NCBI GenBank assembly: GCA_963666055.2
Contig: CAXWPH010000015.1
Span: forward strand, 1,312,001-1,376,000
Reading direction: 5' to 3'
Source: Acidobacteriota bacterium
Lineage (GTDB): Bacteria; Acidobacteriota; UBA890; WLXD01
DNA: 64,000 nucleotides
In this document: positions 2,471 to 45,110 of the stretch, piece by piece
How the letters are laid out: each line of letters begins with the position of its first letter
Position numbering within the stretch: the first letter of the stretch is position 1
Position numbers and translations under genes: made by a program
Notes under the pieces: model-generated
The model's database searches: none
What the model saw: only the letters and a program-made list of their open reading frames with translations
What the model was told of the DNA's origin: nothing

Positions 2471-2544
2471 CGCGCCCGGGAGGATTCGAACCTCCGACCT
2501 GCGGATTAGAAGTCCGCTGCTCTATCCAGCTGAGCTACGGGCGC
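2471..2544 (-). tRNA. tRNA-Arg(TCT)
   Basis: Full cloverleaf: acceptor GCGCCCG/CGGGCGC, anticodon arm GCGGA-CTTCTAA-TCCGC, T arm GGAGG-TTCGAAT-CCTCC; followed by CCT rather than CCA. Confidence 0.97.
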
Positions 2545-2678
2545 CCTTTATTCATCGGCACTTACAAGCCGCACGGTGGTTTCGTGAGGCCGATTATGGC
2601 CAAACTGTGCCCGCAGTTTAGCAAGAAGTCGGGGTAGCTCCGGCGCAGGAGCTGACCTAGCTGGTCGTTCCGCCAACC

Positions 2679-2750
2679 TGGATCCCCAGCCGTCGCGGCG
2701 ATAGGCTTCAGGCGCCCACCCACTCCTCTGTGGTAGCGCCATGGGACCCA
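2679..2750 (+). promoter_or_regulatory. Kinase-type sigma70 promoter, leader and start remnant upstream of the SpdH-like gene
   Basis: TGGATC-N17-TAGGCT-N33-ATG; homologous to 11173-11237. Confidence 0.65.
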
Positions 2751-2854
2751 GCTCGCCAGAGACGCCGGGCGGTTGGCGCGAAACTAGCGCGACACGTGAT
2801 TCTTCCAGACGACGATCGTAGTCCCGTCAGGTTTCCAGGAAAGGCACAACAGCG

Positions 2855-4771
2855 ATGAGCAAGATTCTGAGAAGGGATTTCATCAACGGAGCTCTAATGG
2901 TGGCAGGAACATCCATGTTCCCGTTCGGAGGCAAGGAGGACTCTGTTCTGGCCGCCCTCCAAGCACCGTATTACCCGCCAGCGGAAACAGGACTAAGGGG
3001 TAGCCACCCAGGATCGAACACCCACGCCCATGCGCAAGCATTCCATGGCAAGTCCGATTGGGGACCAACCACCAGGCTCAAAGAAGAGTACGACCTGGTT
3101 GTCGTAGGAGGCGGGATCAGCGGACTGTCGGCTGCCTATTTCTATCAACAAGTTCACGGACGGAACAAGAAGGTACTTGTACTCGACAATCACGATGATT
3201 TCGGTGGCCACGCCAGAAGAAATGAACACACAGTTGGGGGTGACACGAGAATCATCCGCGGTGGATCGGAGAGCTTAGAGAGTCCACATGCATTCAGTGA
3301 CGTCGCGAAAGGACTGCTAGACGACCTAAGCGTAGCCCTGGATCGATTCAACACCGCCTATGACTTCGACTTCTTCAAGCGACACGATTTGGGGGCCGTC
3401 ACCTATTTCAACAAGAGAGTCTTTGGCGAAGACAAAGTCGTAAAGCATCCGTATTGTGGCTACCCATCGTTTATCCAAGGGCTCAAGCCGCCAGAACTGG
3501 CCCATGAAGAGGCGGTACAACAAGCTCCTTTGAGCGAGAAAGGCAAGGAGCAATTGCTCACCGTCCTCAACGGTGGTCTACACGTATTACCGGTGCCCCA
3601 AGAGGAATCACAGGACTACATCTCCACCCATTCCTACTTCGATTATCTCAAGAGCACCCTGGGTGTCGACGATCCCGGGGTCCTACGGATGGCCAGACAT
3701 TCCGTTGTCGATGTCGACGGGGCGGGTGGGGACGTCATGACCATATTGGAAGCGCTGGAATCTGGGGCCATGGGTCTGGATCCGTCGTCACTCGAAGATG
3801 TAATGGACGAAGAGGAATATAGAAACTACATAGAGAGCTATGGGTACCTATACGACGAGGGGGACCCATACATACATCACTTTCCCGATGGCAATGCAAC
3901 GATTGCACGCCTGCTGGTACGAAAGATGATTTCTGGCGTTGGAACAGGGAACAACGCTGACGACATCGTACTATCGAGATTCAACTATGACGAGCTAGAC
4001 AAAGCCAGCAACGCCGTACGAATCAGATTGAACAGTACGGTCGTCAATGCGGTCCATCGCGGCGATCCCGACAGCTCGAGTGAAGTAACCGTCACCTACA
4101 TCAATGACAACAAGTCCTATCAAGTAACAGGAAGAGCTGTCGTAATGGCCTGTTACAACATGATGATTCCCTATCTGGTCCCCGATCTTCCAGCCGATCA
4201 GGCAGCTGCCTTGAAGCGTCTCGTGAAGCTCCCCATACAGATCACTACCGTCGGGTTACGGAACTGGAGGGCAATGAAAGAGTTGGGGATCGGAATGGCC
4301 ATGTCGCCCGGGAACATGCACCAAGTGGTGGGGATGGACTATCCGATTAGCATGGGTGGCTATGAGTTCACCAGCACGCCGGACGACCCCTGTGCCATCT
4401 ACATGACGAGTTGTCCAGTAGGAGAAACCGTTGGCGCACCTCCCGTCGAACAATTCCGCGAAGCAAGACACAGAATGCTGGCGTTAGAGTTCAACGATTA
4501 CGAAACCGAAGTCAGGGAACACCTGAGTGGCATGCTCCCAAAGAACTTATTTGAGTTCGACAGAGATGTTGAAAGTATTTCGGTAAATCGTTGGGCGCAC
4601 GGTTACGCTCATAATGGCTATGCACTCTATGACCCGGAAATGCCAGAAATGGCACGAATGGGGCGGCAACCCTTTGGCCGAATTACCATTGCCAACATTG
4701 ACTCTGCGGTTAGTTCTTATGTGAACGTTGCAATAGATCAGGCATGGAGAGCAGTGAGGGAATTGGGATGA
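2855..4771 (+). CDS. FAD-dependent oxidoreductase, spermidine dehydrogenase-like, Tat motif
   Basis: LRRDFING, GLRGSH, VVGGGISG, DNHDDFGGHA, HFPDGNA, NRWAHGY. Confidence 0.85.
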   Translation: MSKILRRDFINGALMVAGTSMFPFGGKEDSVLAALQAPYYPPAETGLRGSHPGSNTHAHAQAFHGKSDWGPTTRLKEEYDLVVVGGGISGLSAAYFYQQVHGRNKKVLVLDNHDDFGGHARRNEHTVGGDTRIIRGGSESLESPHAFSDVAKGLLDDLSVALDRFNTAYDFDFFKRHDLGAVTYFNKRVFGEDKVVKHPYCGYPSFIQGLKPPELAHEEAVQQAPLSEKGKEQLLTVLNGGLHVLPVPQEESQDYISTHSYFDYLKSTLGVDDPGVLRMARHSVVDVDGAGGDVMTILEALESGAMGLDPSSLEDVMDEEEYRNYIESYGYLYDEGDPYIHHFPDGNATIARLLVRKMISGVGTGNNADDIVLSRFNYDELDKASNAVRIRLNSTVVNAVHRGDPDSSSEVTVTYINDNKSYQVTGRAVVMACYNMMIPYLVPDLPADQAAALKRLVKLPIQITTVGLRNWRAMKELGIGMAMSPGNMHQVVGMDYPISMGGYEFTSTPDDPCAIYMTSCPVGETVGAPPVEQFREARHRMLALEFNDYETEVREHLSGMLPKNLFEFDRDVESISVNRWAHGYAHNGYALYDPEMPEMARMGRQPFGRITIANIDSAVSSYVNVAIDQAWRAVRELG

Positions 4772-4954
4772 AACGCTTAGGCGGGCCGGGGAGAGCCAAC
4801 CTGTAGACCGGGCGCTGATCCGGTGCCGGCGATGTTGCTCCCGAATGTGCCCAGGATTGGTCCCGCGAGGAACCAACGAGCCCCGATTGGGCAGCACCAT
4901 GTTCATCGGCGAGCGTCACCTCCAGCGCATGGGGGTTGAAGCTGGCTGATGGTC

Positions 4955-4974
4955 TTGATGGGACGGCCTGCTAG
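4955..4974 (-). mobile_element. IS/MITE end fragment at CTAG
   Basis: CTAG|CAGGCCGTCCC on the - strand, overlapping the sulfatase stop; same terminus as the MITE at 39256. Confidence 0.5.
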
Positions 4975-6545
4975 TCCCTCTCTCTAAAGGCTGGTCTTAC
5001 TTCTGCCTGTTCCTCCCACCGGTCACCGTAAAGCGACTTGAAAGCCTGTGCGTAGTCCGTGGATCCCGTTACGGTTCCGCCTCGCCAAAGATCGTACTCA
5101 ACATCGGAATGGGCGTCGAAGAATGCCGTGAGTCTTCCATCCAGTTCCGAAACTACTTCGGCGTAGTCAGGACTCCCGTATAGATCGTGCATCTGCTCAG
5201 GATCGTCTTGTAGATCGTAGAGCTCGTGCTCACCCGTACCTTTCAGCCGTTTCCAATATGAATACCGATCGGTTCTGATTGCACGGGTCGCCTGTTGATC
5301 CATATACACGGCGTCGGCCCACGCCTCGAGCGTCCCACCTCGTAGGTGGTCAGCGAAACTCCTTCCAGGAGAGTCAGCTATTTCCACATCCGCAAACCCA
5401 GCCAGATCAAGCACTGTGGGCATGAGGTCGTATTGCCCAACGAGCAGATCACTCACTTGCCCTTTCTTGATGTGTCCTGGATAGCGAGCAATGAACGGTA
5501 TGTTCATCGGCGTATCGTACAGACCTGCCGGAAAAGCGTAGTCAGTATGACCCCAAAGTCCATGCTGTCCGAAGAAATTTCCCTGATCACTCGTGTAAAT
5601 CACTAACGTGTCGTCTTCGAGTTGATTTTCCTTCAGTGCTGCCAATAGACGGCCGACACCTTCGTCTACCATCGTGTTTTGTGACGCGACATTAGCCATT
5701 GTTGCTTGGTCGTTGTGCATGCGTGCCAAGCTGGCGTACCACCCGGAGTACGGTGGCCTTAACCGCTCGAGTATCCTGTCGTTGATCCTGTTTCTAGGAA
5801 ACGAAGGAAACTCTTTGTCCTTGTAGTACGCATAATGAGGGTTCTTGGCGGGACCGAGGTTTGTTGGTGGGTTCAGATAAGGACCGTTGAAGGTAACCAG
5901 CAGGAAGAAGGGCCTCTGGTGATCATAGTCCTCCAAGTATGCGACAGCTTTGTCGGCAAAGAACTCGACGCTGTGCTTATCCTCTAATCTGTACGTTCTG
6001 GTGTTGTCATTGATCTCATTGGACCAGAAATCGACGGTATGGCCCAGATTGAACGTCACCCAATAATCGAACCAGTCGTCCGGCGGACGTGGCTGACCTA
6101 GGTGCCATTTGCCGATCAATGATGTCTGATATCCTCGAGTTCTCAGCGTGTACGGTAATGTTCTGTACTCTCTGATCGCATTCCAATCGTCGGGCCAATT
6201 CTCCATCTTTGCGTCATCTAGCCAGTCGTGAACGCCATGTTGAGAAGGTAGGAGCCCGGTCAGCAGTGTTGCGCGTGTTGGGGAACACATACCGTGTACG
6301 GCAAAGGCACGGGTAAGACGCATTCCTTCGTTGGCTAGCCGATCAATATTGGGTGTCCTGACATCCGGGTTTCCATAAACGCCGAGGATCGAGGCGGGTT
6401 GGTTGTCGACGACTATGTAGAGGATATTCGGCTTGCCTTGGGCTTCGGCGAACATTGGAAGAGAGAAGAAGAGAAAAGAGACAAACAAAAATGGCGTCCG
6501 ACGAGTGCCGAAACGACGACTCGGCGCTGATATCTGATCGCTCAT
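4971..6545 (-). CDS. Sulfatase (Cys-type), secreted
   Basis: CSPTRATLLTG and GKWHLG motifs; signal peptide. Confidence 0.92.
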   Translation of the reverse strand: MSDQISAPSRRFGTRRTPFLFVSFLFFSLPMFAEAQGKPNILYIVVDNQPASILGVYGNPDVRTPNIDRLANEGMRLTRAFAVHGMCSPTRATLLTGLLPSQHGVHDWLDDAKMENWPDDWNAIREYRTLPYTLRTRGYQTSLIGKWHLGQPRPPDDWFDYWVTFNLGHTVDFWSNEINDNTRTYRLEDKHSVEFFADKAVAYLEDYDHQRPFFLLVTFNGPYLNPPTNLGPAKNPHYAYYKDKEFPSFPRNRINDRILERLRPPYSGWYASLARMHNDQATMANVASQNTMVDEGVGRLLAALKENQLEDDTLVIYTSDQGNFFGQHGLWGHTDYAFPAGLYDTPMNIPFIARYPGHIKKGQVSDLLVGQYDLMPTVLDLAGFADVEIADSPGRSFADHLRGGTLEAWADAVYMDQQATRAIRTDRYSYWKRLKGTGEHELYDLQDDPEQMHDLYGSPDYAEVVSELDGRLTAFFDAHSDVEYDLWRGGTVTGSTDYAQAFKSLYGDRWEEQAEVRPAFRERD

Positions 6546-7087
6546 GTTCAGTTCCTCCGCAATGCGTCAGCGGGAATGTCCCAGATAGACACCGCCGACG
6601 CAGCTACTCCCGTCGGTGAGGTGAAGATGCCTGGATGCAATCACAGGTGCACTGTCTTCTCCAGGGATCCTCTACCCGATCGCCGGCCGGCGGCCGGCAT
6701 CAGCGGTATGCAGAACTGCTAATTGCAGGCGGTGGACTGCGCCCCGCCGCGCAGCTCGGCCCCTTTCTGACGGATCCGTCGGCACGGCCTCCGGCTGCCC
6801 CCTCCCGACTGGACCGTCGTCAGTTCACAGGCGCGAAACTGATTCTCTGCGCCTCGGATAGCCGGGAGGACAGATCATCCGGCCCAGCTCGCCGCTCGCG
6901 CGCCCGCGGCATCTCCGCTGTGTGAACTGACCTATTGTGGGTAGTTTCGCGCACCGTGGACCGTCGCAAGCTCTGGCGATACGGGTACTGGGGACGGAAA
7001 GTGAAGTCGTATCGCTGTGCGGCGATCTGCTGGGGCGTCGCGTTCGTTGCGTTCCTTATCGGAGGCGGTGCCGGCCGACTCAGCAGG

Positions 7088-7333
7088 TTACAAGTCCAGG
7101 TCCCCGAGCTTCGTGCCCGTGCCTTGGGCAAGGCTACGTCGAGCCTTCTCGATCCGCGCCAAGAAGCGCGGATCATTCTCCAGCTGATAATCGAACCAGT
7201 CTTCCTCGGTCCCGAACCCGACCAATACCCCCGCGGGGCGGCCATGGCGTGTGATCACGACCTCTTCGTGCTCGGCAAGCCGCAGCACGCGCGATAGGTC
7301 GTCCTTCACTTTGGAAAGCGCGATCTTCTTCAT
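7088..7333 (-). CDS. Phd/YefM-family antitoxin
   Basis: MKKIALSKVKDDLSRVL...EEVVITRHGRP. Confidence 0.9.
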   Translation of the reverse strand: MKKIALSKVKDDLSRVLRLAEHEEVVITRHGRPAGVLVGFGTEEDWFDYQLENDPRFLARIEKARRSLAQGTGTKLGDLDL

Positions 7334-7623
7334 TGGGCTTCTCCGAGTCTGCTGAGCCAGTCAGCAGCATCACGCTTGGCAACTACCGCAAGCACGCGTA
7401 CTTGCTGGTCGACAACGTCATAGAACACCTGCACTTCGTCGATCCTCAGTCTGAACTGCGGCTTCCGCAACCCGCGAAGCCGTTTGATCCGACTCTTGCT
7501 CTGCTTCCGTGGCTCGTGGCGCAGGTGAGTCTCTATTGCGTCCCGTACCCGCGCTCGAACATTCGCCTTGAGCTGTCCGAGGTCATCGACAGCCTCCTGG
7601 GCCAGAATGATCTCGTGTCTCAT
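7330..7623 (-). CDS. RelE/ParE-family toxin
   Basis: 97 aa basic protein with FRLRIDEVQVFY; ATGA overlap with the antitoxin. Confidence 0.88.
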   Translation of the reverse strand: MRHEIILAQEAVDDLGQLKANVRARVRDAIETHLRHEPRKQSKSRIKRLRGLRKPQFRLRIDEVQVFYDVVDQQVRVLAVVAKRDAADWLSRLGEAQ

Positions 7624-7646: not shown

Positions 7647-7884
7647 TTTCGAGTAACGGTAGTAGGCATTCTCGCTGCCGGTGTGTCTCGAGCGTTTACG
7701 AACCGCGGTAGGATCCCGACACTCCCATCGGCGCACTTCGCCTATTTCTTGCCTAACTCTGTGCAAAGAGCGTCGGATTCTGGTTGTTTCTCTTTGTATC
7801 TAATTGTACGCGTGCAGTCGGAACCCACTGCGAATACAAAGGAAACGAGCGAGATACAACCAGATACAAACGGGCGGCTTTGAC

Positions 7885-7923
7885 TTAGAAGTCCGCTGCT
7901 CTATCCAGCTGAGCTACGGGCGC
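7885..7923 (-). repeat. att site: 5' half of tRNA-Arg (copy 2)
   Basis: 39/39 identical to 2506-2544; AGATACAA repeats at 7852 and 7862; IHF-like GATCAATAACTTA at 7934. Confidence 0.92.
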
Positions 7924-8075
7924 GAGTGTCTAAGATCAATAACTTAGGCCGTTGTTGGCCTGGCAAGACGAGACGGATTCGGGACATTGCCTACGAGTTG
8001 ATCGCCCACGAACCCAGACATGTCGACCATTTGACCACCAGGACAGCGGCCCAACCATCTTCGGAGGTCTCACCG

Positions 8076-9395
8076 ATGACAAGGAGTGCAATCAACCGCC
8101 GGGCTTTCTTGGGCTCGTCCGCAGCAGCAGCGATGGCGGCCGGCTGTGGCGATTCGGGATCCGCCAGCAGGCTGGCCGCGGCCAGGCAATCACGCAACCC
8201 GGTGGCGGTCGATGAGCTGCAGCCTGCGTTCTCGGAAGCCGAGTATCAGGATCGCCTACGACGCGTGCGCGAGCGGATGGCACAGGACAACATCGATCTA
8301 CTTTGGGTCATGCTGCCGGAGGGAATGTGCTACCTGCACGGCCTGATCCTCGGCTGGTACCGGGCCAACTCGCCAAAGAGCTGGCTGCCAGTCTCCGGGA
8401 CTGCCGTACATGTAGACCACGACAAGCTGATTCACTTCGACGTCGGCCCTCATCAAGCCACGTTGGACGCCATTACAGTGGTTAAGGACTTCCGCGTTCT
8501 GCAAGGCGGTATGGAGTTCGTCATCGCTGAGCTGCAGGCGGAAGGATGGCTCGGTGGTACGGTCGGCATCGACCGGTGGAGCTATAGGCCTCCTCCCGTG
8601 CTTGCGGAGCGACTCGCGGCAGCCTTCACCGGCGCCGGCTGTACGGTCGTCGACAGCAGCGATGTGATGCGCGACGTTCGGATCGTCAAGTCGCCCGAGG
8701 AGATCGCCGTCATGGATGAGGCGGGTCGGATCGCGGATGCCGGCCATGAGGCCATCCGCGCAGCCCTGCACCCCGGGGTCACCGAGCTCGAGATGTACGG
8801 CGAGGCGTTGCGGGCGATGTTCGCCGCCGGCGGGGGGACTCCGGCGTTGATCTGCGAGGTCACGAACCCCAGAGGCTGGCATGCCTGTCCGTCCCGCAGG
8901 GTCCTCGAGCAGGGTGACGCGCTGTTCGCCGACCTCTGCGGGGTTGCGCACCGTTATCACGTCAACACGTCTCGGACTTATTGGCTGGGAGAACCGCCGG
9001 CCGAGGCAGTCGAGTCGTACGTGAAGAACGCCGGTTCGTTCGCGGTGCTCAGCGAACACGGCCGCGCCGGCACCCCCATTGCCGAGGTCTGCGACGCCCT
9101 CAGAGATTACTACGACGACGTCGGCTTGGACCCGGAGGGATTTGGCTACGACCTGGGCATCAGCTTCCCGCCAGATTGGGTCGGCCCCTTCGTCTGGTCG
9201 TTCGGCCGCTACGGCGACGCTCACACCGTCGAGGTCACCGGCCTGGGCGAGGACCAGGATCAGTGGATCTTCCAGGAGGGCATGGTCACCAACTACGAGA
9301 GCGTCATCGGCGAGGCGTTGATGCAGTCCGTTGTTTTCGAGCCGGACGGGGCGCGCTTGTTATCCAAGTTGCCGATCGAGATCGCGGTCGTGTGA
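8076..9395 (+). CDS. M24 (Xaa-Pro peptidase/creatinase-like) hydrolase, Tat signal
   Basis: INRRAFLG; creatinase-type N-terminal domain; RIVKSPEEI; GYDLG; RBS GGAGG. Confidence 0.85.
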   Translation: MTRSAINRRAFLGSSAAAAMAAGCGDSGSASRLAAARQSRNPVAVDELQPAFSEAEYQDRLRRVRERMAQDNIDLLWVMLPEGMCYLHGLILGWYRANSPKSWLPVSGTAVHVDHDKLIHFDVGPHQATLDAITVVKDFRVLQGGMEFVIAELQAEGWLGGTVGIDRWSYRPPPVLAERLAAAFTGAGCTVVDSSDVMRDVRIVKSPEEIAVMDEAGRIADAGHEAIRAALHPGVTELEMYGEALRAMFAAGGGTPALICEVTNPRGWHACPSRRVLEQGDALFADLCGVAHRYHVNTSRTYWLGEPPAEAVESYVKNAGSFAVLSEHGRAGTPIAEVCDALRDYYDDVGLDPEGFGYDLGISFPPDWVGPFVWSFGRYGDAHTVEVTGLGEDQDQWIFQEGMVTNYESVIGEALMQSVVFEPDGARLLSKLPIEIAVV

Positions 9396-9509
9396 CGGTC
9401 GGGTCCGGCGCCGTGCCGATCTGCCGCCTTCGTCCGGCTGCCGCGGCGCCAATGAGCCCGGCGTCCGGACCGCAGCCCACGACAAGGTCGCCTTCGGGCG
9501 TCTCGACGG

Positions 9510-11024
9510 CTAGCTTTGCGGCTGCGAACCTGGCTTAAGACCGGTGTATTCGAAGACGAACATGCCCGTTCCTACGCGATCCGACGCGTAGGCAAGACCG
9601 CGGTGGTCGAGCGTGACGTCATTGATCTGGATCGCCGTTTCTTGCCCGGCGGAAATAGGGTAGGAGTTCTCGTTCGTTTTGGGAATGTAGTAACCCAGTT
9701 CCGTCAAATGGTAGGGATCCGAGAGATCGACGACACGAACGCCAGCGTTGAAATAGGCAATCCAAGCAAGTCGGTCCTCGTGGCGGTTGATGCGGCCGTT
9801 CCGCTGCTCAGCGTGCTGGTGGGGACCAAAGCGCCCACCCTTGCTACAGAAATTACCGGTCGGCACCTGAAACGTCGAGACCGGCATCGGATGAGTCTCC
9901 ACGGTGACGTCGAACATGTAGGACTTCGCACGTACGCCATCCTCGCAGGGCGCCAGGTCGGCCGTGCCTGCTTCGTCGGTGACGAACAGGAAGTTGCGGG
10001 GTAGCGCGTTGCTCTTGAAATATTGGGTGAGATCGTCATAGACGACGGGCGTCAGGGTGTGAGGACCCCGCCCTGGTGGCGACGTGTCGTAGCTCCAGAC
10101 CATCCTTGGGTTCGAACGGTCGGAAATGTCCCACGCGCCCATCCAACCGGAGCCGCGGAAGCCGATGTACATCCTATTGTTGGCTTCGTCGACGATCGGA
10201 TGGTGCACGTACTGGCCCTCGTAAAGCGCTTCGTCTTCCGTCTCCTTCATGCCCGGAAGCCACGCCCGGCCTGCAAATTTCGGATTGCTCGGGTCCCTAA
10301 GGTCCCAAATCTGGAGTGAAGTGTTGCGGAAGCCGGGCTCCCCGGATGATGTGTAGTAGTAGCCCGAGTCCTGCGACCAATAGCCCTTGTGCGCTCGATA
10401 CTTGAAAGGGCCACCGCAACCAGGGCCGCACGATTCCGGGGGCGTACCGGTGATCTCGGCCACGAGAGTAATCTGCGTGGGGTCCGAGCCTCGGGTGGTG
10501 ATGTCGAAGATCTGGAACCTGAAGTCGTCACCTGTGTCTAGGCTGCGGGCGAGATAGTCCTTGCCTTCTCCGTCGTGCGTGTAGTCATAGACGACCGAAA
10601 CCGAGCGGTGATTCGCTTTCGAAACGCCAGGAATGTGCCACATCGTGGTTGGGCTGGATGGGTCCGAGATATCGATCAATGACGTCCCATTGATTTCCAG
10701 CTCCCCGGTGATGGGATTCAACAGCCCCTCTTCGTCGCCGCCGCGTGCATTCGGTTGGTGACCGACATAAAGCCAGTTTCCGTTCTCCCGGTCCGAGCGG
10801 GTCACCAATTGCAGTGATTCGCGGCCCTGCAGATCGTTGTAGCCCACAAGCCGCACGTTCTGTGCGCCGTCGGACATCGGGTCGTCTTCGGCCGCTCGCA
10901 TACTCTCGGAGCCTTCTTGGGCCGGCGGCGCGCAGGAGAAGAGTGCAAGGGATAGCCCCAAGCCCAGCGGCAACAACGTTGCGGATAGCAACGCCGTCCT
11001 ACTCGAATACTCTCTAGTCGTCAT
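9510..11024 (-). CDS. LVIVD-repeat lipoprotein
   Basis: Lipobox-like ALFSC; GGRFGPH; AYFNAGVRVVDLSDP. Confidence 0.8.
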   Translation of the reverse strand: MTTREYSSRTALLSATLLPLGLGLSLALFSCAPPAQEGSESMRAAEDDPMSDGAQNVRLVGYNDLQGRESLQLVTRSDRENGNWLYVGHQPNARGGDEEGLLNPITGELEINGTSLIDISDPSSPTTMWHIPGVSKANHRSVSVVYDYTHDGEGKDYLARSLDTGDDFRFQIFDITTRGSDPTQITLVAEITGTPPESCGPGCGGPFKYRAHKGYWSQDSGYYYTSSGEPGFRNTSLQIWDLRDPSNPKFAGRAWLPGMKETEDEALYEGQYVHHPIVDEANNRMYIGFRGSGWMGAWDISDRSNPRMVWSYDTSPPGRGPHTLTPVVYDDLTQYFKSNALPRNFLFVTDEAGTADLAPCEDGVRAKSYMFDVTVETHPMPVSTFQVPTGNFCSKGGRFGPHQHAEQRNGRINRHEDRLAWIAYFNAGVRVVDLSDPYHLTELGYYIPKTNENSYPISAGQETAIQINDVTLDHRGLAYASDRVGTGMFVFEYTGLKPGSQPQS

Positions 11025-11073
11025 GTGGCATGCAACGCTTTGGATCGAGCGTCATCTTGCGCTCACCGGACAG

Positions 11074-11100
11074 TGACCTGCCCCCAAGTCTTGGCCCACT
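11074..11100 (+). mobile_element. IS3-family terminal repeat remnant
   Basis: TGACCTGCCCCC, the same terminus as at 57388 next to an IS3 orfA. Confidence 0.55.
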
Positions 11101-11172
11101 TCGTAACTCATAAAATCGGTGCGGGCAAGAGCTTGTTGGAGCCGGCGGAGCGGAGCGTCCTGGCTTCTCCCG

Positions 11173-11234
11173 TAGACCCCCGCGAGCCTCAGCGATAGGC
11201 TTCACGCGCTCACCCACCCTGCCTCGGGAGCGCC
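11173..11234 (+). promoter_or_regulatory. Kinase promoter and leader
   Basis: TAGACC-N17-TAGGCT-N33-ATG. Confidence 0.7.
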
Positions 11235-13880: not shown

Positions 13881-14094
13881 CGACCGTCGACCTGGTGAGA
13901 TCGCCATGAGACTCGCAACCACTCCGTCCACTGGAGGAAAGGTAGCGAGAACCCCGCTCGACTCGCTTCTTCGACTTAAACGCGTGCCACAGATCTGTCT
14001 CGAGGTTGATCCCTTCGGGAGCTGGCGTACCGAGGTGGTCGCACGAGCTGGTTGCCGGTCTGGTTGTGCTGGAGTATGGTAATATGGCATAACT

Positions 14095-14391
14095 ATGGGC
14101 ACACGTAAGGTCACCTACACCATTGACGCGGCGACGGTTGCTCGCCTCGAAGAAGCGGCTGAGCGACTGGGAAAGCCGAAGAGCCAGGTGGTTCGCGAGG
14201 CGATCAACGACTATGCCGAGCGCATCGGGCGGCTGAGCGAGGGCGAGCGGTTGCGCATGCTGAAGACCTTCGACGAGCTGGTCGGCAAGATCCCCGAGCG
14301 ACCGGTCCGCGAGGTGGATGACGAGCTCGTCGCGATCCGTGAATCGCGTCGCGTCGGCGGGCGGCGCTCCGGTGGTGGAAGCAAGCATTGA
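14095..14391 (+). CDS. Ribbon-helix-helix antitoxin (VapB-like)
   Basis: KVTYTID...KSQVVREAI; overlaps the PIN gene. Confidence 0.85.
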   Translation: MGTRKVTYTIDAATVARLEEAAERLGKPKSQVVREAINDYAERIGRLSEGERLRMLKTFDELVGKIPERPVREVDDELVAIRESRRVGGRRSGGGSKH

Positions 14392-14774
14392 TCGCGCTGG
14401 ACACCTCCGTCCTCGTCGACGCGCTCACCGGGCCGCGACGCTCGGCTGGCGCTTTGCGACGGTCGATCGCGGCCGGCGAGCGGATCATGATCCCCTCGCT
14501 CGTGCTTTTCGAGTGGCTGCGGGGGCCACGGACGATCCCCGAGCTCGAGGCGCAAGAGGCGCTGTTCCCGCGACGGCAGGCAGCGGCCTTCGGTGAACGC
14601 GAGGCCGGGCTCGCGGCCGAGCTCTACGCGCAGGTAGCGCGTCCTCGCGGCCGAGAGATCGATCTCGCCATCGCCGCATGTGCTCTCGTGCAGGCTGCAG
14701 CGCTGTGGACCTTGAACCGCGCCGACTTCAGCGACTTGCCCGGACTCGAGCTCTACGAGCCGCCCGGATCCTGA
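14388..14774 (+). CDS. PIN-domain toxin (VapC-like)
   Basis: LDTSVLV, E, DLAIAACA, LWTLN..DF. Confidence 0.9.
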   Translation: MIALDTSVLVDALTGPRRSAGALRRSIAAGERIMIPSLVLFEWLRGPRTIPELEAQEALFPRRQAAAFGEREAGLAAELYAQVARPRGREIDLAIAACALVQAAALWTLNRADFSDLPGLELYEPPGS

Positions 14775-14857
14775 GGCATCACTGCGCGAGACGGATCTCC
14801 ATCGCCGCGCCCGGGTGCGCCCGTAGCGTAGCGGCGGACGAATCAAATGGCCTACGA

Positions 14858-27880: not shown

Positions 27881-27881
27881 C

Positions 27882-31583: not shown

Positions 31584-31622
31584 TCGCGGGGATTGCGGTT
31601 CGATAGGAGAGCGCCGACCGGG

Positions 31623-37600: not shown

Positions 37601-37861
37601 CTGCGAACCACCGGGGCATCGGAGAATCTACTGCGCTTTCCCGCCGGCTTGTTTTCGCACTTCCAGATGCTCGGTCGCTACGTGATGACCGGTGACGCGC
37701 GCCCTACACCTTCCAAATACGCGGTGTTTGATGAGTTGTCGGCCCGCCTGGAACAATACAGAGAAGTCTACGGCACACTGATTTCCCGGGACCTTGACGA
37801 ATTCAACGCGATCGTTCGAGCGCATGGGCTCGCCGGCATTGCCGTGCGACCACAGGACTGA
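34670..37861 (+). CDS. BNR/VPS10-repeat glycosyl hydrolase-like protein
   Basis: Multiple S/TxDxGxxW Asp-boxes; DHH motif; signal peptide. Confidence 0.88.
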   Translation: MKQPQLCRRCVAAVLGTALVVVAPGLLAQELDPAMYGALRYRHIGPEGNRVIAIASHPGNRDVIYAGAASGGVWKTTDGGLNWDPVFDDTDVASVGALAVSISDPNVVWAGTGETNIRSMISSGNGIYKSTDAGNTWQHMGLRETGRIGRVVIHPDNPDVVFAAAVGTAYGPQQERGVFRTVDGGDSWQRVLFVGEDTGASDIAMDPSNPRNLVAGMWPIDIKTWQRTSGGHNGGIFVTHDGGDSWERATEGLPEPPTGKIAVAYAPSNPERIYALIETDQYEFKGVLWRSDDGGDSWQLISRDQQYHTRPHYYTRLVVAPDNDEEVYFLATRLARTLDGGDTASILRNAGGDHHDMWIDPAIPDRILLANDGGVHISLNRAGSWYHPDLPIAQMYHVAVDDQVPYFVYGNRQDGPTRRGPSNSLAGGNWHSVGGGEAGWTIPDPFDNNIVWASNEQGVLTRYDLRTGHTTNVQVWPETPVGKSPRDIKYRWVWSYPVVVSRHTPGTLYVGSQYVHKTADGGQTWNEISPDLTTDDETKQVDSGGLTFDNVGVDYGTTLFAIGESPLDPDILWAGSNDGLVHVTRDGGDSWTNVTPNGDSLPPWGTVSSIEASRFDAGSAYIAVDLHQVDDRDPYVYRTKDFGASWTRITNGIPRSMLSYVHVVREDPQRPGMLYLGTENTVYISVDDGDIWLPLRNNLPPAPIHWLTVQERFGDLVLGTYGRRFWILDDLSPMRQLTSDVLSKELHLFEPRPAYRLLRRSLPGERVRGAPPGYVEDPPFGAAINHYLANSTDQPATITIRDQAGNVVRTLRGTTNAGINRSYWDLRHEESPAVKLRTPPLGHPGIAFGPESIRYNADGWRELDVEGSGGNGPLALPGTYTVELQIGSRQLRTSLEVLKDPTSAASGEDIRAQLDLALRIRDEVSALTAMGNSIEWIRKQIDDLEDLVRGRADMTEVEDAATAFDQQLIALEREFYILRTTGASENLLRFPAGLFSHFQMLGRYVMTGDARPTPSKYAVFDELSARLEQYREVYGTLISRDLDEFNAIVRAHGLAGIAVRPQD

Positions 37862-37937
37862 TCGCCGAGCTCAGCGTTCGCGGCCAACAACCAGACGATT
37901 GGTACCGCACCCATAGTGACAACGAAGGGAGTTAGCG

Positions 37938-39218
37938 ATGAAGCAACGGTTGATTGTGCTGGTTGCGACGATGGTTGTCGCCTCGACGGTCCTGGCTCAG
38001 GAAGGACCCGATCCGAATCGTCCCGGGGCGAGGGAGGTGATCGAATACGATGTGCCTGACGAGGTCGATATCGACTACGAGGTGCTCGACAACATCGACA
38101 CTTCGTCGTCGGAGTTCGGCGTCGTGCCGCTACCAGACGAGGTTGGCAAGACCCTGACGGGCCTGTTCAGCAAGTACACGAAGCACGTTGCTCCCAACGG
38201 TAAGCCGATCCACATCCTCGGCCAATCGCGGGTGAGTGATCTACAGATGGCGCGCGCCCGGGAGATTCTCAAATACCACCTCGCGGATGCGCCCGGCACC
38301 CGGTACGGCAGTGACAAGGCTGCCATCGCCAACCGGATGGGGGACGTGCGAGCGACGCTCATCTACACAGACACCCAGGCCAGGGCGTTCGCGATGTACG
38401 ACATCATCGGAGAGTCGGAACTCGCGCTCCAGGACCTGTATGCCACCGAATCTCCCGTGGAGGGCGGCTACGTCTACCTTCACAACGAGGCCGAGGCGGG
38501 AGGCTTCTTCACGCGTGATGCCTCGTACGAGGAAATCCTGCATCTCGTGCATGCCAAAGGCATAGAGGAGGTGCTCCCCGAGTACCATGCGGCGATCGTG
38601 GAAGCCGAGCGGCGCGCCACAGACGCCGGGATCTACAAGTACGGCAGGCTGGCCCCCCACGAGTACATCATCAGCGGCTTCGACATCTACTTTGGCCTGT
38701 GGGACCACGATCCCCAGGGCGACGGGGCCTCGTACGGCGGCGAGTATCCCTACCACACAAGCGAGGAAATGAAGGCAGGCGACCGGCCCCTCTTCGATCT
38801 CATCGACGAGTTCTGGCCCGAGTACCTGACCTACAACGCCTACATCGACCCGTCTTTCGAGGGCACCTTCTTGATAGCCCACGACGAAGGTGTCGAATAC
38901 ACCAACAAGTCTCGGTTCCTGGTTGAGGTCTCGTTGACCGGCTCGAATGATTCGGGGGTCGTGGGGAACGACCAGGACAACGTGCTCACCGGCAATGCAG
39001 GTAACAACGATTTCACCGGGGCTGCGGGAGACGATTTCATCACCGGCGCGGCCGGAACCGATCGGGCCACCTTCGTTGGGGTCGCATCCGAGTATCGAAT
39101 CGACACGAGTGGGTCGACAACGACAGTGGCCGATACGGTGGAAGGTCGCGACGGGACGGACCGATTGACCGGCGTCGAGATCCTCGTCTTTCGCGACAAA
39201 GAGATGGATATCGAGTAA
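37938..39218 (+). CDS. Secreted protein with EExxH metal motif and C-terminal RTX-like Ca-binding repeats
   Basis: YEEILHLVH, PHEY; GNAGND/GAAGDD nonapeptides; DGTDRLTGVE. Confidence 0.75.
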   Translation: MKQRLIVLVATMVVASTVLAQEGPDPNRPGAREVIEYDVPDEVDIDYEVLDNIDTSSSEFGVVPLPDEVGKTLTGLFSKYTKHVAPNGKPIHILGQSRVSDLQMARAREILKYHLADAPGTRYGSDKAAIANRMGDVRATLIYTDTQARAFAMYDIIGESELALQDLYATESPVEGGYVYLHNEAEAGGFFTRDASYEEILHLVHAKGIEEVLPEYHAAIVEAERRATDAGIYKYGRLAPHEYIISGFDIYFGLWDHDPQGDGASYGGEYPYHTSEEMKAGDRPLFDLIDEFWPEYLTYNAYIDPSFEGTFLIAHDEGVEYTNKSRFLVEVSLTGSNDSGVVGNDQDNVLTGNAGNNDFTGAAGDDFITGAAGTDRATFVGVASEYRIDTSGSTTTVADTVEGRDGTDRLTGVEILVFRDKEMDIE

Positions 39219-39255
39219 GTAACCATCCTGGAAGTCGCCGGAGGAGGAGGGCTAG

Positions 39256-39423
39256 CAGGCCGTGGTGAAAGTGTGGTGGGTCTGGCGACAGGGTCTTGCG
39301 AAGTGGAGGCAAGGAGAGAGGAGGAGGCGATGGTTACCCCATCGTTGACGAGGAACGACGCAGCATGCGCGCGCAACCCCCTGTCGCCCGAAGGGTTACC
39401 CACCACACTTTCACCACGGCCTG
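39256..39423. mobile_element. Complete 168-bp MITE with 26-bp TIRs and CTAG target duplication
   Basis: CTAG(39252)-CAGGCCGTGGTGAAAGTGTGGTGGGT...ACCCACCACACTTTCACCACGGCCTG-CTAG(39424). Confidence 0.92.
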
Positions 39424-39427
39424 CTAG

Positions 39428-40093
39428 CATTCCTCCTCCGAACCGAGCGCAGGCCTCCGCCAGGCTCTCCAGGCTGCCGATGTCGTACCAAGATCCGGTA
39501 AACCGGCTCGCATAGCACGGGACGCGCTCCACCAGCCACGCCAGAAAGTGGCCTGGGGCGTCGTGGCTTCCGTGCTCCAGGTACTCGTCGAGGCGCTTCA
39601 GGTCCTCCGACTGGAAGAAGTAGAGGGCGATCGCGGCGAGGTCGGTGCGGGGCTCCGCGGGCTTCTCGCGAAACTGCTCGATGCGCCCGTCATCCGCCAG
39701 CGTCACCTCGTTATAGCGCGACGGTCCGCTATCGGGCTGCACACGGCGGACGACCAGGGTGGTTCGGGCGCTGGCGCGGAACTCCCGCTGTACCGGCCGC
39801 AGGTCCATGTCGAAGAGGTTGTCGCTGGCGAGAACGACCGCCCCATCTTCGTCTGGGGGCTCGTGCTCGAGCGCCAGGCGGAGGTCACCGAGGGCACCGA
39901 GACGTCCATCGTTCGAGGTCGTTCCGTCGTTGAGGAGCGTGAAGCGAGCCCACGGCTCCAGCATCTCCGACCATTGCTGGAAGTGACCGTAGAAGCGATC
40001 GTTTGTCACGATGACGACGTCGGTCAGGCCGTCGAGGACCCGCAGGCTGGTCCGGGTCGTCATTGGCAATCGCGACGAGACCCAGTCGAGCAT
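39428..40093 (-). pseudogene. Sugar-phosphate nucleotidyltransferase, N-terminally truncated
   Basis: VVLASDNLF, FREKP, WYDIGS; lacks the GxGxR start; runs into the MITE. Confidence 0.75.
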
Positions 40094-40167
40094 TCGTGAG
40101 TTAGAGTTCACCGAACAACCTCCGCGACCACGACGGCAACCGGTACAACCGAAGGCCGCGAAATAGC

Positions 40168-41700
40168 ATGGATCATTCACGAAAGCGAGCGGAGGACTAC
40201 ATCGACTTGATCGACGCGGCGGTCGTATATGAAGTGGCGACGAGGACCCCGCTCGAACTCGCCGGCAGCCTGTCCGCGCGACTCGGCAACCGGATTCTAC
40301 TGAAACGAGAGGACCTGCAGCCGATCTTCTCGTTCAAGCTCCGCGGTGCGTACAACAAGATCGCATCACTCTCGCAGCGGGCGCTGGGCGCAGGGGTCGT
40401 ATGCAGCTCGGCCGGGAACCACGCGCAGGGCGTGGCACTCGCCGCGCGACGGAAAGACGCGCGGGCGGTAATCGTCATGCCGGTCACGACACCTGACATC
40501 AAGGTCGATGCCGTGATGGCGTTGGGGGGCGAGGTCGTATTGCATGGCGACACCTACGACGATGCCTACATCAGGGCGCGGGAGCTCGAGAAGGCCGACG
40601 GCCTGACGTTCATCCACCCTTTCGACGATCCCGCGGTCATCGCCGGCCAGGGCACGATCGGCAAGGAGATCCTCGAGCAAGCGGACGAAGCCGTGAGCGC
40701 CGTCTTCGTTCCCATTGGTGGCGGTGGGCTTATCTCGGGAATCGCAGCCTATATCAAGGCGAAGCGGCCAGGAATCCGCATCATCGGCGTCGAGCCGGAG
40801 GATTCGGCGGTGATGCGGGACTCGGTCGCCGCCGGAGAGCGCGTCATCCTGGAGCATGTCGGCATCTTTGCCGATGGGGTCGCCGTCAAGCAGGTGGGCG
40901 AGGAGACCTTTCGGCTCTGCCGGGAGCTGGTCGACGATTTCGTCACCGTCGATACGGATCAGATCTGCGCCGCCGTTCGCGACATATTCGAGGACACGCG
41001 CTCGATCGTCGAGCCCGCCGGCGCGCTAGCGGTCGCCGGCGCCAAGCAGTATCTCGCTGAACACGCAGCGCGGGACGAGACGTTCGTGGTGATCAACTGC
41101 GGCGCCAACGTCAACTTCGACCGGCTACGTCATATCGCCGAGCGTGCCGCTGTCGGTGACCAACAGGAGATGTTGCTAGCGGTCGAGATTCCCGAGAAGC
41201 CCGGTAGTTTTCAGAAGTTCTCGGAAGCCGTCGGCCGGCGCGGCGTCACCGAGTTCAATTACCGCTACAGCGACCCGAAGAACGCGCACATCTTCGTCGG
41301 CATCCAACTGCGCCGTGGAGCGCAGGAACGAGCGGAGCTGATCGAGGCGCTGAAGGGGCTCGGCTATCCACTGGTCGACCTGAGCGATGACGAGATGGCC
41401 AAGCTCCACATCCGGCATATGGTCGGTGGCAGGACAGCGAACCTAGAGAACGAACGGCTGTTCCGCTTCGAGTTTCCGGAACGTCCCGGTGCGCTGCTCG
41501 ACTTCCTCACCGCGATCGGCGCGAACTGGAACATCAGCCTGTTCCACTACAGGAATCACGGCTCCGACCACGGCCGGATCCTTGCCGGCATCCAGGTACC
41601 CGAGGAGGAGTCGGACGAACTCGAGGCATACCTTTCCGAGCTCGGCTATCCGCACTGGGAGGAGAGCGACAATCCGGCGTACGCGATGTTCCTGGCCTGA
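40168..41700 (+). CDS. ilvA: Biosynthetic threonine ammonia-lyase
   Basis: KREDLQPIFSFKLRGAYN, SAGNHAQG, two ACT-like regulatory domains. Confidence 0.96.
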   Translation: MDHSRKRAEDYIDLIDAAVVYEVATRTPLELAGSLSARLGNRILLKREDLQPIFSFKLRGAYNKIASLSQRALGAGVVCSSAGNHAQGVALAARRKDARAVIVMPVTTPDIKVDAVMALGGEVVLHGDTYDDAYIRARELEKADGLTFIHPFDDPAVIAGQGTIGKEILEQADEAVSAVFVPIGGGGLISGIAAYIKAKRPGIRIIGVEPEDSAVMRDSVAAGERVILEHVGIFADGVAVKQVGEETFRLCRELVDDFVTVDTDQICAAVRDIFEDTRSIVEPAGALAVAGAKQYLAEHAARDETFVVINCGANVNFDRLRHIAERAAVGDQQEMLLAVEIPEKPGSFQKFSEAVGRRGVTEFNYRYSDPKNAHIFVGIQLRRGAQERAELIEALKGLGYPLVDLSDDEMAKLHIRHMVGGRTANLENERLFRFEFPERPGALLDFLTAIGANWNISLFHYRNHGSDHGRILAGIQVPEEESDELEAYLSELGYPHWEESDNPAYAMFLA

Positions 41701-41769
41701 TGCCGAACCCGTGCTTTTTCGGAGAGTTACAGGCCACTAGTTGCCAGCGCAACTGATCGGGTCGCTGCC

Positions 41770-41826
41770 ACGGAGTCCTTCACCGGTACCCGACTGGGCC
41801 GTTACGAGATCCTCGACCGCCTCGGC
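41770..41826 (+). pseudogene. Kinase N-terminal remnant
   Basis: (ACG)ESFTGTRLGRYEILDRLG. Confidence 0.7.
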
Positions 41827-41922
41827 TTTGTTGCGTCGGCCTCTCGCCGCGGGGCCATGCTAGTCGAGAGCCGGCACCACATCTAAGGGGTTTCCGGTGA
41901 CCGCTTGATACTCCCCAACCCG

Positions 41923-43310
41923 CTACTGCCGCCACGCGGGGATATCGAGTTGTGTCGGCGCCGGCACGAGACCCGCCCGGTGCTCCTCGACGATCGACAC
42001 CAAGTCCGCGATCAGCTCGGGGTGATCGGCGGCGACGTCGAACCGCTCGGCGGGATCCTCCTCGACGTTGTAGAGGGCCGGCGGGTCGCGGGCCACCGGC
42101 TGGTCGCCGACGTACGCTGATTGGGTGATGAAGTGCAGCTTCCAGGGGCCCCTGCGCACGGCGAAGAGGCGTGTCCCTCGATAGTAGTAAACGACGTCCC
42201 GCACTTGTTCGCGCTCGCCTCTCATCACCGGCGTCAGATCCACACCGTCGACGATGCGGTCGGCGGGGAGGGGGACGCCGGCGAGAGCCAACGCGGTGGC
42301 ATAAAGATCCATGGTCGTAGCCAGCGCCGTGGAGGTGAGCCCCGCCTCGATGGTGCCCGGCCACCAGGCCAGCGCGGGCACCCGCATGCCGCCCTCCCAG
42401 GTCGTACCCTTGCCGTCGTGCAGCAACCCGGCGGAGCCGCCTTCGAGCTTCTGCGTGATCCACGGGCCGTTGTCGCTGGTGAAGACCACGAGCGTGTTTT
42501 CGTCCAGGCCCGACTCCCGCAGTGTCGCCAGAATCTCGCCGGTGCTCCAGTCAAGCTCCTCGACCACGTCGCCGTACAGGCCGCGCGGGCTGTTGCCCGC
42601 GAAATCCTCGCCGGCAAACAACGGCACATGAGGGAAAGTGTGGGGTAGGTAGAGGAAGAATGGCCGCCCGCGGTTCCTACGGATGAACGCGATCGCTTCT
42701 TCCGTGTAGCGGCGGGTGAGCGTGCGCTGATCAGGTTCCTTCTCGATGGTCTGGACGCCACGCACGAGCGGTAGCGCCGTGTACCCGCGTTCCGCCAGCT
42801 GCGGGTACATCACGGCGCTCATGTCGTTGGAGTAGGGCACGCCGAAGTACTCGTCGAAACCGTGGTTCGGCGGCAGGTGTTCGGGTCGGTGGCCGAGATG
42901 CCACTTGCCGAAGATGCCGGTCGCGTAGCCCGCGGTCTTGAGCGCCTCCGCGATCGTCAGCTCGGAAGCCGGTAAGCTTCCCTGGGAGGGGGAAAGATCA
43001 CCCGGAAGCGGTCGTTGGCCATCCCGCTTCGGATCGGCAGGCGCCCTGTCATCAACGCCGCGCGGCTCGGCGTGCATACCGAGGCGCCGACGTAGAACTG
43101 CGTGAACTTCATGCCCTCGGCCGCCATGCGATCGAGGTTGGGGGTGCGGATCGTCGGGTTGCCGTAAATGCCGAGGTCGCCGTAGCCGAGGTCGTCGGCG
43201 AACAGAATGACGATGTTCGGGAGGTCGGACGGCGAGATTTCGGGCGCTGATGCGCACCCGGGAAGCATGGCCGCGCCGACGACGATCGCGGCAAGCACGG
43301 ATCTGGACAT
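41923..43310 (-). pseudogene. Arylsulfatase A-like sulfatase, frameshift near 42970-43000
   Basis: DDLGYGD and [12 protein letters not shown] in one frame; GKWHLG onward in another; shift near a G/C run. Confidence 0.85.
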
Positions 43311-43397
43311 GACGCGGGGATTCTAGTCGCTCGATGGGGCTTTCCGAGCATCACGTGCACGCCTTTTCGCCAACCATGGAGCCGATTGCCATGGCGG

Positions 43398-43416
43398 TTC
43401 TTCAGCACCCTGCTAG
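43398..43416 (-). mobile_element. IS/MITE end plus CTAG (variant family)
   Basis: CTAG|CAGGGTGCTGAA on the - strand; same terminus as at 62739. Confidence 0.6.
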
Positions 43417-43430
43417 TGGACGGACGACCC

Positions 43431-44906
43431 CTAATCTTGATTACGGATCGAGTACAGGCGGCTCTGAGTCCGCAGAAGCAGTCGATCACCGACGATGGCG
43501 GGCGAGGCTAGCGTCCACTCGTTCAGGTCGTTGATATGGGACAGCCGGTACTCCCGGCCGGCCTCGATCACGAAGGTATCGCCCTCCTCGCCCATCGCGA
43601 AGATCTTGCCGTTGTAAGCCCACGGCGTGGTCGTGAACGCCGAGGCGCCCGGTGCAACGCGGGAGCGATAGACTCGCTCACCGGTCTCGACTTCGTAGCG
43701 GGCGAAGATGCCTCTCGAGGTGAGCACGTACAGCGCGCTGTCGTAGATGATCGGCGTCGGCAGATACGTGCCCCCTGCGACAGGGTTGTACCAGACGACA
43801 TGCTCGTTCTTGTCCGCCTGGGCTTTCGGCGTGATGTCTCCCGACGCGCCCGGACGGATCGAAGCGATGGCCCTGTCTTGCTGTCCGGAGGACCCGGAGG
43901 TCACGAACAGGTGGCCGCCCCAGACGAACGGACTCTGGATGGTGGTGGTCGCCATGCCGTGCATCCGCCACAGCTCCTCGCCCTCCAGGCTATAGCTGAT
44001 GACAGCGCGGGGTCCGACCGTGACGATCTCGGTGCGCAGCTCGTGCTCCCAAACGAAGGGCGTCGACCAGCCGGTCTTTCGCCCTTCGCCCATGTCCCGC
44101 AGCGTGCGCCACAGCTCCTTGCCGGTTCGTTTGTCGAACGCGGCGACGAACCCCTGCTCTTCGTTGTCGTTCAAGACGATCACACGGTCACCATGAAGTG
44201 CGGGAGATGCGCCGGTGCCGAAATCCCGGACCTTCTGAAACAGCTTTAGCGGCGTCGCCCACACCGGGTTCCCGTCCAAGTCGAAGGCGAAGAGCCCAAG
44301 GTGTCCTAAGTAGACGTAGACGCGCTCACCGTCGGTCACTGGTGTCTCGGACGCGAAGCTGTTTTTTCGGTGCCGCCCGCCCGGCGGGTTGCCGTGGTAG
44401 ACCTGGCGCTCCCAGAGGGGCGCACCGCTCTCGAGATCGAAGCAGTAGAGCATCAGGTCGATCACGACCTCGTGTGGCATCTCGCGATCGCGCGCATAGA
44501 GCCGGTCGTTGGCCTCCTCGCTCGACAAACCCTCGGCCCGCATCTCCGCAAGGTACTCATTGCTGAAGTCGGTCCCCAACGAGGGCTGCTTCATCGGCCG
44601 ATCGCTGACGGCTGAAGTCAGGAAGACCTTGCCGTCCCAGACGATCGGCGAAGACCATCCGATGCCGGGCACCTCGATCACCCACTCGACGTTTTCGGTC
44701 GTCGACCACCGCTCCGGCAGCCTCGGGTTGTCGGCGATGGGGAGGGAATCGGGCCCCAGGAAGCGAGGCCAATTGTGCGTCGGCTTGTCTTCATCAACGG
44801 CCTGGAGAGGCGGCGCCCCGGTCGGTGCGGGAGGTTCCTGTCGGGCTGCGGCGGCAACGCAGCCCATCGCGACCAGCACAGCTACGATCGCCCGGCTAGT
44901 GCTCAT
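43431..44906 (-). CDS. PQQ-binding-like beta-propeller protein
   Basis: NWPRFLGP, WSSPIVW, WSTP. Confidence 0.87.
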   Translation of the reverse strand: MSTSRAIVAVLVAMGCVAAAARQEPPAPTGAPPLQAVDEDKPTHNWPRFLGPDSLPIADNPRLPERWSTTENVEWVIEVPGIGWSSPIVWDGKVFLTSAVSDRPMKQPSLGTDFSNEYLAEMRAEGLSSEEANDRLYARDREMPHEVVIDLMLYCFDLESGAPLWERQVYHGNPPGGRHRKNSFASETPVTDGERVYVYLGHLGLFAFDLDGNPVWATPLKLFQKVRDFGTGASPALHGDRVIVLNDNEEQGFVAAFDKRTGKELWRTLRDMGEGRKTGWSTPFVWEHELRTEIVTVGPRAVISYSLEGEELWRMHGMATTTIQSPFVWGGHLFVTSGSSGQQDRAIASIRPGASGDITPKAQADKNEHVVWYNPVAGGTYLPTPIIYDSALYVLTSRGIFARYEVETGERVYRSRVAPGASAFTTTPWAYNGKIFAMGEEGDTFVIEAGREYRLSHINDLNEWTLASPAIVGDRLLLRTQSRLYSIRNQD

Positions 44907-45071
44907 CGATCAGTCCTCCACGAATTCGGCGACAATCCGATTGCTGTTCATGGGCCGCGGAGCCGCAGATCCGCGCCGCACGCGACCATCACGTATTCAG
45001 TGCTGCAGTCCGAACTGTGCCCACGATTGTGCCCGCGGGAACTAACCAGCGCCAACTGGGCCCGTTTGGTC

Positions 45072-45110
45072 TTAGAAGTCCGCTGCTCTATCCAGCTGAG
45101 CTACGGGCGC
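45072..45110 (-). repeat. att site: 5' half of tRNA-Arg (copy 3)
   Basis: 39/39 identical to 2506-2544; TGTGCCC repeats at 45016 and 45028. Confidence 0.92.

Follow-up and report, generated by a model that had tools for sequence, protein, structure and literature searches.

Spare 5' halves of a tRNA-Arg(TCT) gene in an Acidobacteriota genome: a degraded array of probable reverse-orientation integrations

Islands that duplicate the 5' part of their target tRNA gene have been described before. Islander lists a 5' fragment in 159 of 3919 islands, requires an integrase in every island, and includes only four tandems of three or more (PMC4383910). In archaea, integrases of the pTN3 type are described as using the 5' half, with the tRNA expressed from the integrase's own promoter, a mode seldom seen in bacteria (PMC8371274; also PMC6563490). 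Tandem islands that have attachment (att) ends but no integration genes are described as cis-mobilizable elements (CIMEs; PMC5704250), and 15 islands at ssrA in Dehalococcoides likewise have att ends but no integration genes (PMC3146451). Here we describe spare 5' halves of a tRNA-Arg(TCT) gene in a 64,000-nt stretch of an Acidobacteriota genome (the window, G000:C15:1312001-1376000), where G000 denotes the source genome and G001 to G005 the relatives with which it was compared. We consider it quite probable that these halves are scars of successive tyrosine-integrase insertions into the anticodon loop, each unit having brought a new front half and probably a transcription signal, with older units displaced upstream and decaying.

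An exact 39-bp identity joins positions 2506-2544 of the window, within the intact tRNA-Arg(TCT) gene, to two further copies (Table 1). Both flanks differ between copies, and the chance expectation for such repeats in the whole genome is about 6e-17. The repeats are positions 1-39 of the tRNA on the minus strand, and their last shared base is the end of the anticodon loop CTTCTAA. These three copies ending at the loop had been proposed in a sequence-only reading of the window, and the exact repeat match, ARAGORN and an Rfam scan, in which tRNA alone was matched, confirmed them. The coordinates likewise bear out that the two spare halves share the orientation of the intact gene and lie upstream of it, the placement of co-oriented 5' fragments in Islander. 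The point at which identity ends may reflect a crossover in the anticodon loop. The 5' half of the intact gene, together with the DNA upstream of it, would have been brought by the unit that arrived last. ARAGORN detected only one intact TCT tRNA in G000, a genome 95.7% complete, and AGA is as rare as the sequence-only reading supposed, accounting for 1508 of 59,586 Arg codons (2.5%) in open reading frames (ORFs) longer than 500 codons.

Matches to the tRNA-Arg 5' half (at most 3 mismatches) were found in 18 of 61 genomes, mostly as lone tRNA genes, and at least two occurred in each of the four other genomes of the genus. In G004, seven 5' halves lie upstream of the intact gene and delimit units of 2506-6355 nt, each with different cargo. 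Four of these seven units are bounded left and right by ends of one conserved type, family A, and two by family-B ends; the remaining unit no longer has its right end. By sequence, cognate left and right att sites (attL and attR), as in CIMEs, are kept in six of the seven, and none of the genome's 13 PF00589 and two PF07508 matches falls inside the array. A second relative captures the direction of growth. Window positions 2506-4965, 5' half included, correspond to G002 C7:583315-580852 at 93.9% identity; the half of this proximal 2.5-kb unit runs into that tRNA's 3' half in G000, whereas two more units precede the intact gene in G002. G000 and G002 form an empty/filled pair with the polarity expected for entry at the intact gene. 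The farthest halves are decayed, matching at 36 of 39 positions in G004 and 34 of 39 in G002, and identity ends at the anticodon loop in most 5'-half copies in six other genomes. With this pair and the seven-unit array, the proposal of tandem integration at the anticodon loop by units that supply the 5' half was upheld.

No recombinase was found between the copies in the window. As the sequence-only reading had stated, the 5.4-kb and 37-kb intervals lack an integrase: searches with PF00589 and PF07508 and a tblastn of all genome integrases against the window detected neither a tyrosine nor a large serine recombinase there. A Pfam scan of 53 of the 213 listed ORFs found no transfer, replication or packaging genes. 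The integrase that Islander expects of each island is thus missing between copies 1 and 2 and between copies 2 and 3, and is present in some units of G002 and G005; the lack of integration and transfer genes is what characterizes CIMEs. Outside copy 3, the predicted integrase remnant was recovered as a PF00589 match. It spans only residues 183-362 of a full-length homologue at 77% identity (the last 180 residues), its N-terminal half was not found, its gene stops 16 nt ahead of copy 3, and a GGGACA arm pair (45182-45204) lies within its final codons. Full-length homologues (family C) share 73-82% identity with the remnant; in G002 and, at two places, in G005 they stop 16-31 nt short of a tRNA-Arg 5' end. 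The search for an intact-length relative thus succeeded, and a related integrase does accompany tRNA-Arg 5' ends in other genomes. In G002, a family-C element of 6.5 kb also separates the intact Lys gene from a Lys(CTT) 5' half located in the native His-Arg operon. In G000, a His-Arg-Lys-Leu tRNA operon (C15:1870602-1870976) has a family-C right-end scar before Lys(CTT). The targets of the clade, Arg TCT, SeC and Lys CTT, have a common stem, CGGA...TCCG, around the loop.

The sequence-only reading had treated the 5.4-kb and 37-kb intervals as intact mobile units, and this part of it did not survive. Their left and right ends come from different end families, so they are not single elements, and the cognate attL and attR of a CIME are absent from them. 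The cargo is shuffled in relatives: ten segments of the 37-kb interval recur in the G004 island and four in the G002 island, in a different order, and one of them adjoins a decayed half in G004 but not in the window. Both intervals are fused remnants of several units, and their status as single elements was rejected. In the family-A right end beside the intact gene, the second GGGCACA-type copy is degenerate; the right-end pattern occurs in 4 of 11 family genomes. The right end before copy 2 (7924-8040) had no homologue among the other ends compared, and the segment with the end of tRNA-Leu(CAA) looks like a junction derived from another tRNA island. By reference to lambda-type att sites, we take the GGGCACA and GGGACA repeats to be arm sites and the A+T-rich spacers to be host-factor sites.

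Table 1. Features of the tRNA-Arg(TCT) locus, in window coordinates
Feature	Position	Strand	Basis
Element end on the 3' side of the tRNA, part of an ordinary 3'-duplicating island reaching the 3' half at C15:1288259	2367..2468	-	91% over 102 nt to flank behind displaced 3' half
Intact tRNA-Arg(TCT), integration target	2469..2544	-	ARAGORN; Rfam RF00005
Family-A right end comprising TTGCTAAACT (2615-2624), an extended -10-like motif, a pair of GGGCACA-type arm repeats, an A+T-rich spacer and then the 5' half	2545..2624	-	aligned to 8 homologous ends of G001, G002, G004
FAD/NAD-binding oxidoreductase, cargo of the cassette nearest the tRNA (about 2545-4892)	2855..4771	+	Pfam
Degenerate family-A left arm without tRNA half, relic boundary inside the 5.4-kb interval	4841..4892	-	81% over 53 nt to end behind copy 3; HMM match
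Cargo sulfatase (4971-6545) and ParE-family gene (7330-7623)	4971..7623	-	Pfam
Family-X left end: TTGTATC repeats, TAGGCAAG-type arms	7721..7884	-	sequence comparison
Displaced 5' half, copy 2 (tRNA positions 1-39)	7885..7923	-	sequence identity
Right end of a further family: TGGTCA-like repeat pair, A+T-rich spacer	7924..8040	-	sequence
Cargo of numerous older cassettes, now fused: peptidases, beta-propeller proteins, kinase, oxidoreductases, amidohydrolase, sulfatase	8045..44927	.	Pfam
Family-A left end, internally shortened, GGGCACA arm pair	45010..45071	-	sequence comparison
Displaced 5' half, copy 3	45072..45110	-	sequence identity
Tyrosine integrase C-terminal remnant, family C	45126..45683	-	PF00589
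Last 24 nt of tRNA-Leu(CAA), then family-C-type arms inverted (3'-type)	47992..48093	-	sequence

An incoming unit that replaces the front of a tRNA gene would also have to provide for its transcription. The motif TTGCTA[AC]ACT is kept in all nine family-A right ends and, in the window, ends 70 nt before the tRNA. Motifs of the TGnTAnnnT type precede 11 of the 61 tRNA and transfer-messenger RNA genes, tRNA-Arg included, compared with 0.87% of 20,000 random windows. Across the integrase family, promoter likeness was higher in 5'-type ends, in which the tRNA follows the integrase in the same direction, than in the others (27 versus 44 ends, p 3e-4), by a score that was devised post hoc and applied to non-independent kin; an extended -10 occurred in 5 of the 27 and none of the 44. 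The family-A right end may have both a promoter and an arm role. For family C, the tRNA is likely transcribed by read-through from the integrase, by analogy with what has been reported for pTN3. The claim that the incoming half brings a promoter thus gained a sequence motif in family-A ends and nothing comparable in the other end families.

Set beside the systems introduced above, the locus shares with the 5'-fragment islands of Islander a tyrosine integrase, a putative subsite in the anticodon loop and a 5' fragment upstream of a regenerated gene; unlike them, most units here lack an integrase, arrays reach seven, and 5' and 3' halves flank one gene. The 5'-half mode is indeed rare, but, given the Islander count, less so than the sequence-only reading implied. 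Integrases of the pTN3 type are split by integration, whereas family C stays whole, with its arms in the last codons, and family-A ends differ from pTN3 in carrying the promoter-like motif without an integrase. With the CIME and Dehalococcoides islands the array has in common the tandem arrangement at one target gene, the many units without integration genes and the metabolic cargo. As described, however, what those islands duplicate is the 3' end or else a short repeat, and they are located downstream of the gene (PMC5704250; PMC3146451), so that they have no promoter to supply, and the ssrA islands rely on serine recombinases (PMC3146451). Prochlorococcus tycheposon islands also have tRNA-Arg(TCT) among their targets, newcomers that push older elements inward, and an accumulation of partial tRNAs and broken integrases (10.1101/2020.12.28.424599), but tycheposons mostly carry their own integrase along with replication or packaging genes of the kind missing from the 53 ORFs scanned. 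The likeness to integrons, a polarised array of integrase-free cassettes, is functional only. Literature searches in a collection short of most subscription journals turned up no account of repeated flipping or of tRNA cassette arrays that lack integrases. The basic mode is already known from 5'-fragment islands and tandem integrase-less islands, and the locus offers a well-documented example of it, not a system of a new kind. The array is real and was probably built by reverse-orientation integration; degraded in the window and clear in relatives, it resembles 5'-fragment islands with CIME-like accretion.

Beyond the window, a comparison of all tRNAs with the genome found a displaced 44-nt 3' half of tRNA-Arg(TCT) at C15:1288259-1288216, 26 kb downstream of the intact gene, and long collinear matches to relatives restart on that side only near C15:1.26 Mb, which together place the tRNA inside a large island fed from both sides. 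When inverted, the end that follows copy 2 can be aligned with the one preceding the displaced 3' half, at 72.5% over 120 nt (E 3e-17) and in register at the 7-nt loop; one element end, family X, is joined to the loop in both orientations. Elsewhere in G000, 3' halves of Met, Thr and Leu tRNAs are numerous, and Lys(TTT) and Leu(TAA) are represented by 5' halves. Two Lys(TTT) 5'-half junctions lie 2 kb apart directly behind tRNA-Leu(CAG) (C6:241244-243281), and a Leu(TAA) 5'-half junction adjoins an integrase remnant (C7:45767-45805). An aberrant second tRNA-Arg-like gene, miscalled as Pyl by ARAGORN (C5:65608-65685), has a 5' half near-identical to that of tRNA-Arg and a different 3' half that is two bases longer; ahead of it lie its own 5' end, duplicated in inverted form, and a tRNA-Met 3'-half junction.

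We traced orientation across the integrase family at 107 loci, comprising 11 from the lineage itself, 5 from other genomes, 11 from viral contigs and the best 80 of 524 metagenome matches. GGGCAC pairs follow 17 and GGGACA pairs 14 of these 107 integrase genes, and by sequence the family-A arms belong to this wider family. A tRNA piece follows the integrase in 75 loci: 46 are convergent (3'-type), 27 co-directional (5'-type) and two sense 3' fragments. The five other-genome loci, located by contig scan, are all 3'-type at tRNA-Phe and distant. For a 71-row tree (26 5'-type, 45 3'-type), the two sense-3'-fragment rows and two short rows were removed and three loci were relabelled to the nearest tRNA, Lys(CTT); a quick search gave 12 changes of type, 11 of them forced by well-supported branches, compared with 21 for shuffled labels. 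The ten rows of the window's clade are 5'-type throughout. After removal of five further short or long-branched rows, an approximately unbiased (AU) test rejected a single 5'-type clade (p-AU 4e-71; 22 versus 44 rows), and with it a single origin of the 5'-type geometry. One integrase family appears to have adopted the 5' mode many times. With a symmetric stem, which half is duplicated would be set only by the direction in which the element carries the 7-nt overlap, and this would explain the repeated flips. Phages that carry their own tRNA copy complement a broken tRNA (PMC10865867), and the analogy suggests a possible intermediate for a flip.

From these observations we propose that a tyrosine integrase inserts units one by one into the anticodon loop of tRNA-Arg(TCT). 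Crossover would take place within the 7-nt loop, flanked by the palindromic stem CGGA/TCCG, with the GGGCACA/GGGACA pairs acting as arm-type sites. Each arriving unit would supply a fresh 5' half, and older units would be shifted upstream and decay. Transcription of the tRNA would start from a TG-TAAACT promoter in family-A ends and depend on integrase read-through in family C, while integrase-free units may have been moved by a visiting or since-lost member of the family.

Several points weigh against this proposal. No excised circle, phage-type att site (attP) or transcript was observed. Of 24 listed public runs, seven contain half or more of the window's words, and none of the holders listed is RNA; contigs of four runs over positions 1-14000, and of four over 44600-48400, stop at the repeat and do not reach excision or empty-site joints, which speaks neither for nor against the proposal. 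The window units have mismatched ends, as does the integrase-bearing unit of G002. A decayed 29/39 5' half (G000:C15:1303883-1303921) lies on the unexpected side, 10.5 kb downstream of the intact tRNA, and rearrangement therefore also shapes the island. The extended -10 motif is found in none of the 11 family-C rows of the window's clade, and the family-A motif could in part be a relic of the integrase's last codons. Most of the distant 5'-type loci received that label from gene orientation alone, and where the tRNA of a 5'-type locus is intact, no displaced 5' half was seen in the flanking sequence retrieved. Finally, the only full-length family-C member in G000, the one beside tRNA-SeC, has an out-of-frame ATG; neither G003 nor G004 gave a family-C match at E<=1e-40, and arm patterns in G000-G004, set against the integrase matches, revealed no integrase beside a family-A, B or X end.

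These last results leave no helper integrase that can be named, and the SeC-linked gene of G000 was rejected as a proven helper on account of its ATG. Mobilisation in trans, as the sequence-only reading had suggested, is accordingly unproven. In G000-G004, arm patterns matched only at tRNA-Arg arrays or at unassigned contig ends, and eight G004 integrase loci and one from G003 showed no family-C likeness apart from one weak match and no such arms by eye. A wider search across the class, limited to 26 genomes, added nothing, and viral contigs gave no match to the exact 5'-half pattern. The tRNA-SeC gene of G000 (C13:66090-67313) has integrases on both sides, a 5'-type family-C gene with the out-of-frame start and a 3'-type one, and a second tRNA-SeC copy with the same 3'-side integrase is at C6:7932-8029.

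A more ambitious reading would see a tRNA-based integron-like system, in which dedicated integrase-free cassettes, each with a full attachment module, a spare 5' half and its own tRNA promoter, are traded between islands by visiting helper integrases, and in which the family routinely flips its core at the palindromic stem (about a dozen times in 71 proteins, and also inside a single end family of one genome), with a promoter acquired on the 5' flip. We hold this only tentatively, at somewhat less than an even chance. It is unlikely, in our view, that pure decay along CIME lines accounts for the array, with all units having come with an integrase and lost it later, and small units travelling only in cis. 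Published accounts derive tandem integrase-less islands in this way (PMC5704250; PMC3146451), and the model fits the integrase remnant and fused units of the window as well as the family-C end remnants upstream of Lys(CTT) in G000. However, six of the seven G004 units keep matched complete ends and perfect halves without an integrase match, family-A right ends are only 78-90% alike in most pairs yet retain the arms and the promoter-like motif, and that motif sits where family C has integrase codons. The integration mechanism is the same as in stepwise insertion of units by a tyrosine integrase; the sole difference is whether cassettes move alone. Ordinary duplication, homologous recombination in an unstable island or assembly error, without site-specific integration, might be suspected from the many other repeats in the island and the duplicated segments on separate G000 contigs, but is very improbable because identity halts at the loop in most copies of the six other genomes, the cargoes separating the copies are unrelated, the halves are bordered by conserved end modules, and contigs from four public runs, overlapping inside the repeat, cover both copy-3 flanks.

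The islands contain other repeats and gene families. One Ser/Thr kinase-beta-propeller gene family is represented by orphan starts and ends at window positions 2206-2241, 2681-2753, 47750-47877, 50275-50394 and 50558-50605. Genome-wide, only 14 of its 50 starts are followed by a full kinase domain and only 7 of its 53 ends are on long ORFs. Such fragments are often found just inside cassette ends, and one G004 unit has a whole 931-aa copy, as if this gene were a default cargo that other genes had replaced. A short element with 30-43-bp terminal inverted repeats, presumably a miniature insertion element, is represented at 39239-39440, 20452-20495, 29525-29558 and 16326-16345; one end has 295 BLAST matches genome-wide, and a copy present in G002 is absent from the window near 4965. 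At 59362-63872, at least three paralogous ORFs in tandem, each about 470 codons long, match nothing in Pfam, have a lower G+C and are 97% conserved in G002.

Integrase-free arrays of this kind are missed by island finders that demand an integrase per unit. With every insertion, the DNA upstream of the one intact AGA-reading tRNA detected in the genome is exchanged, so that selection on tRNA expression would filter the units that are kept. The two orientations of one end family give a direct handle on how reverse-orientation integration evolves. If the cassettes do move in trans, the array would be a route by which an uncultured lineage gathers metabolic genes, with their arrivals recorded in order.

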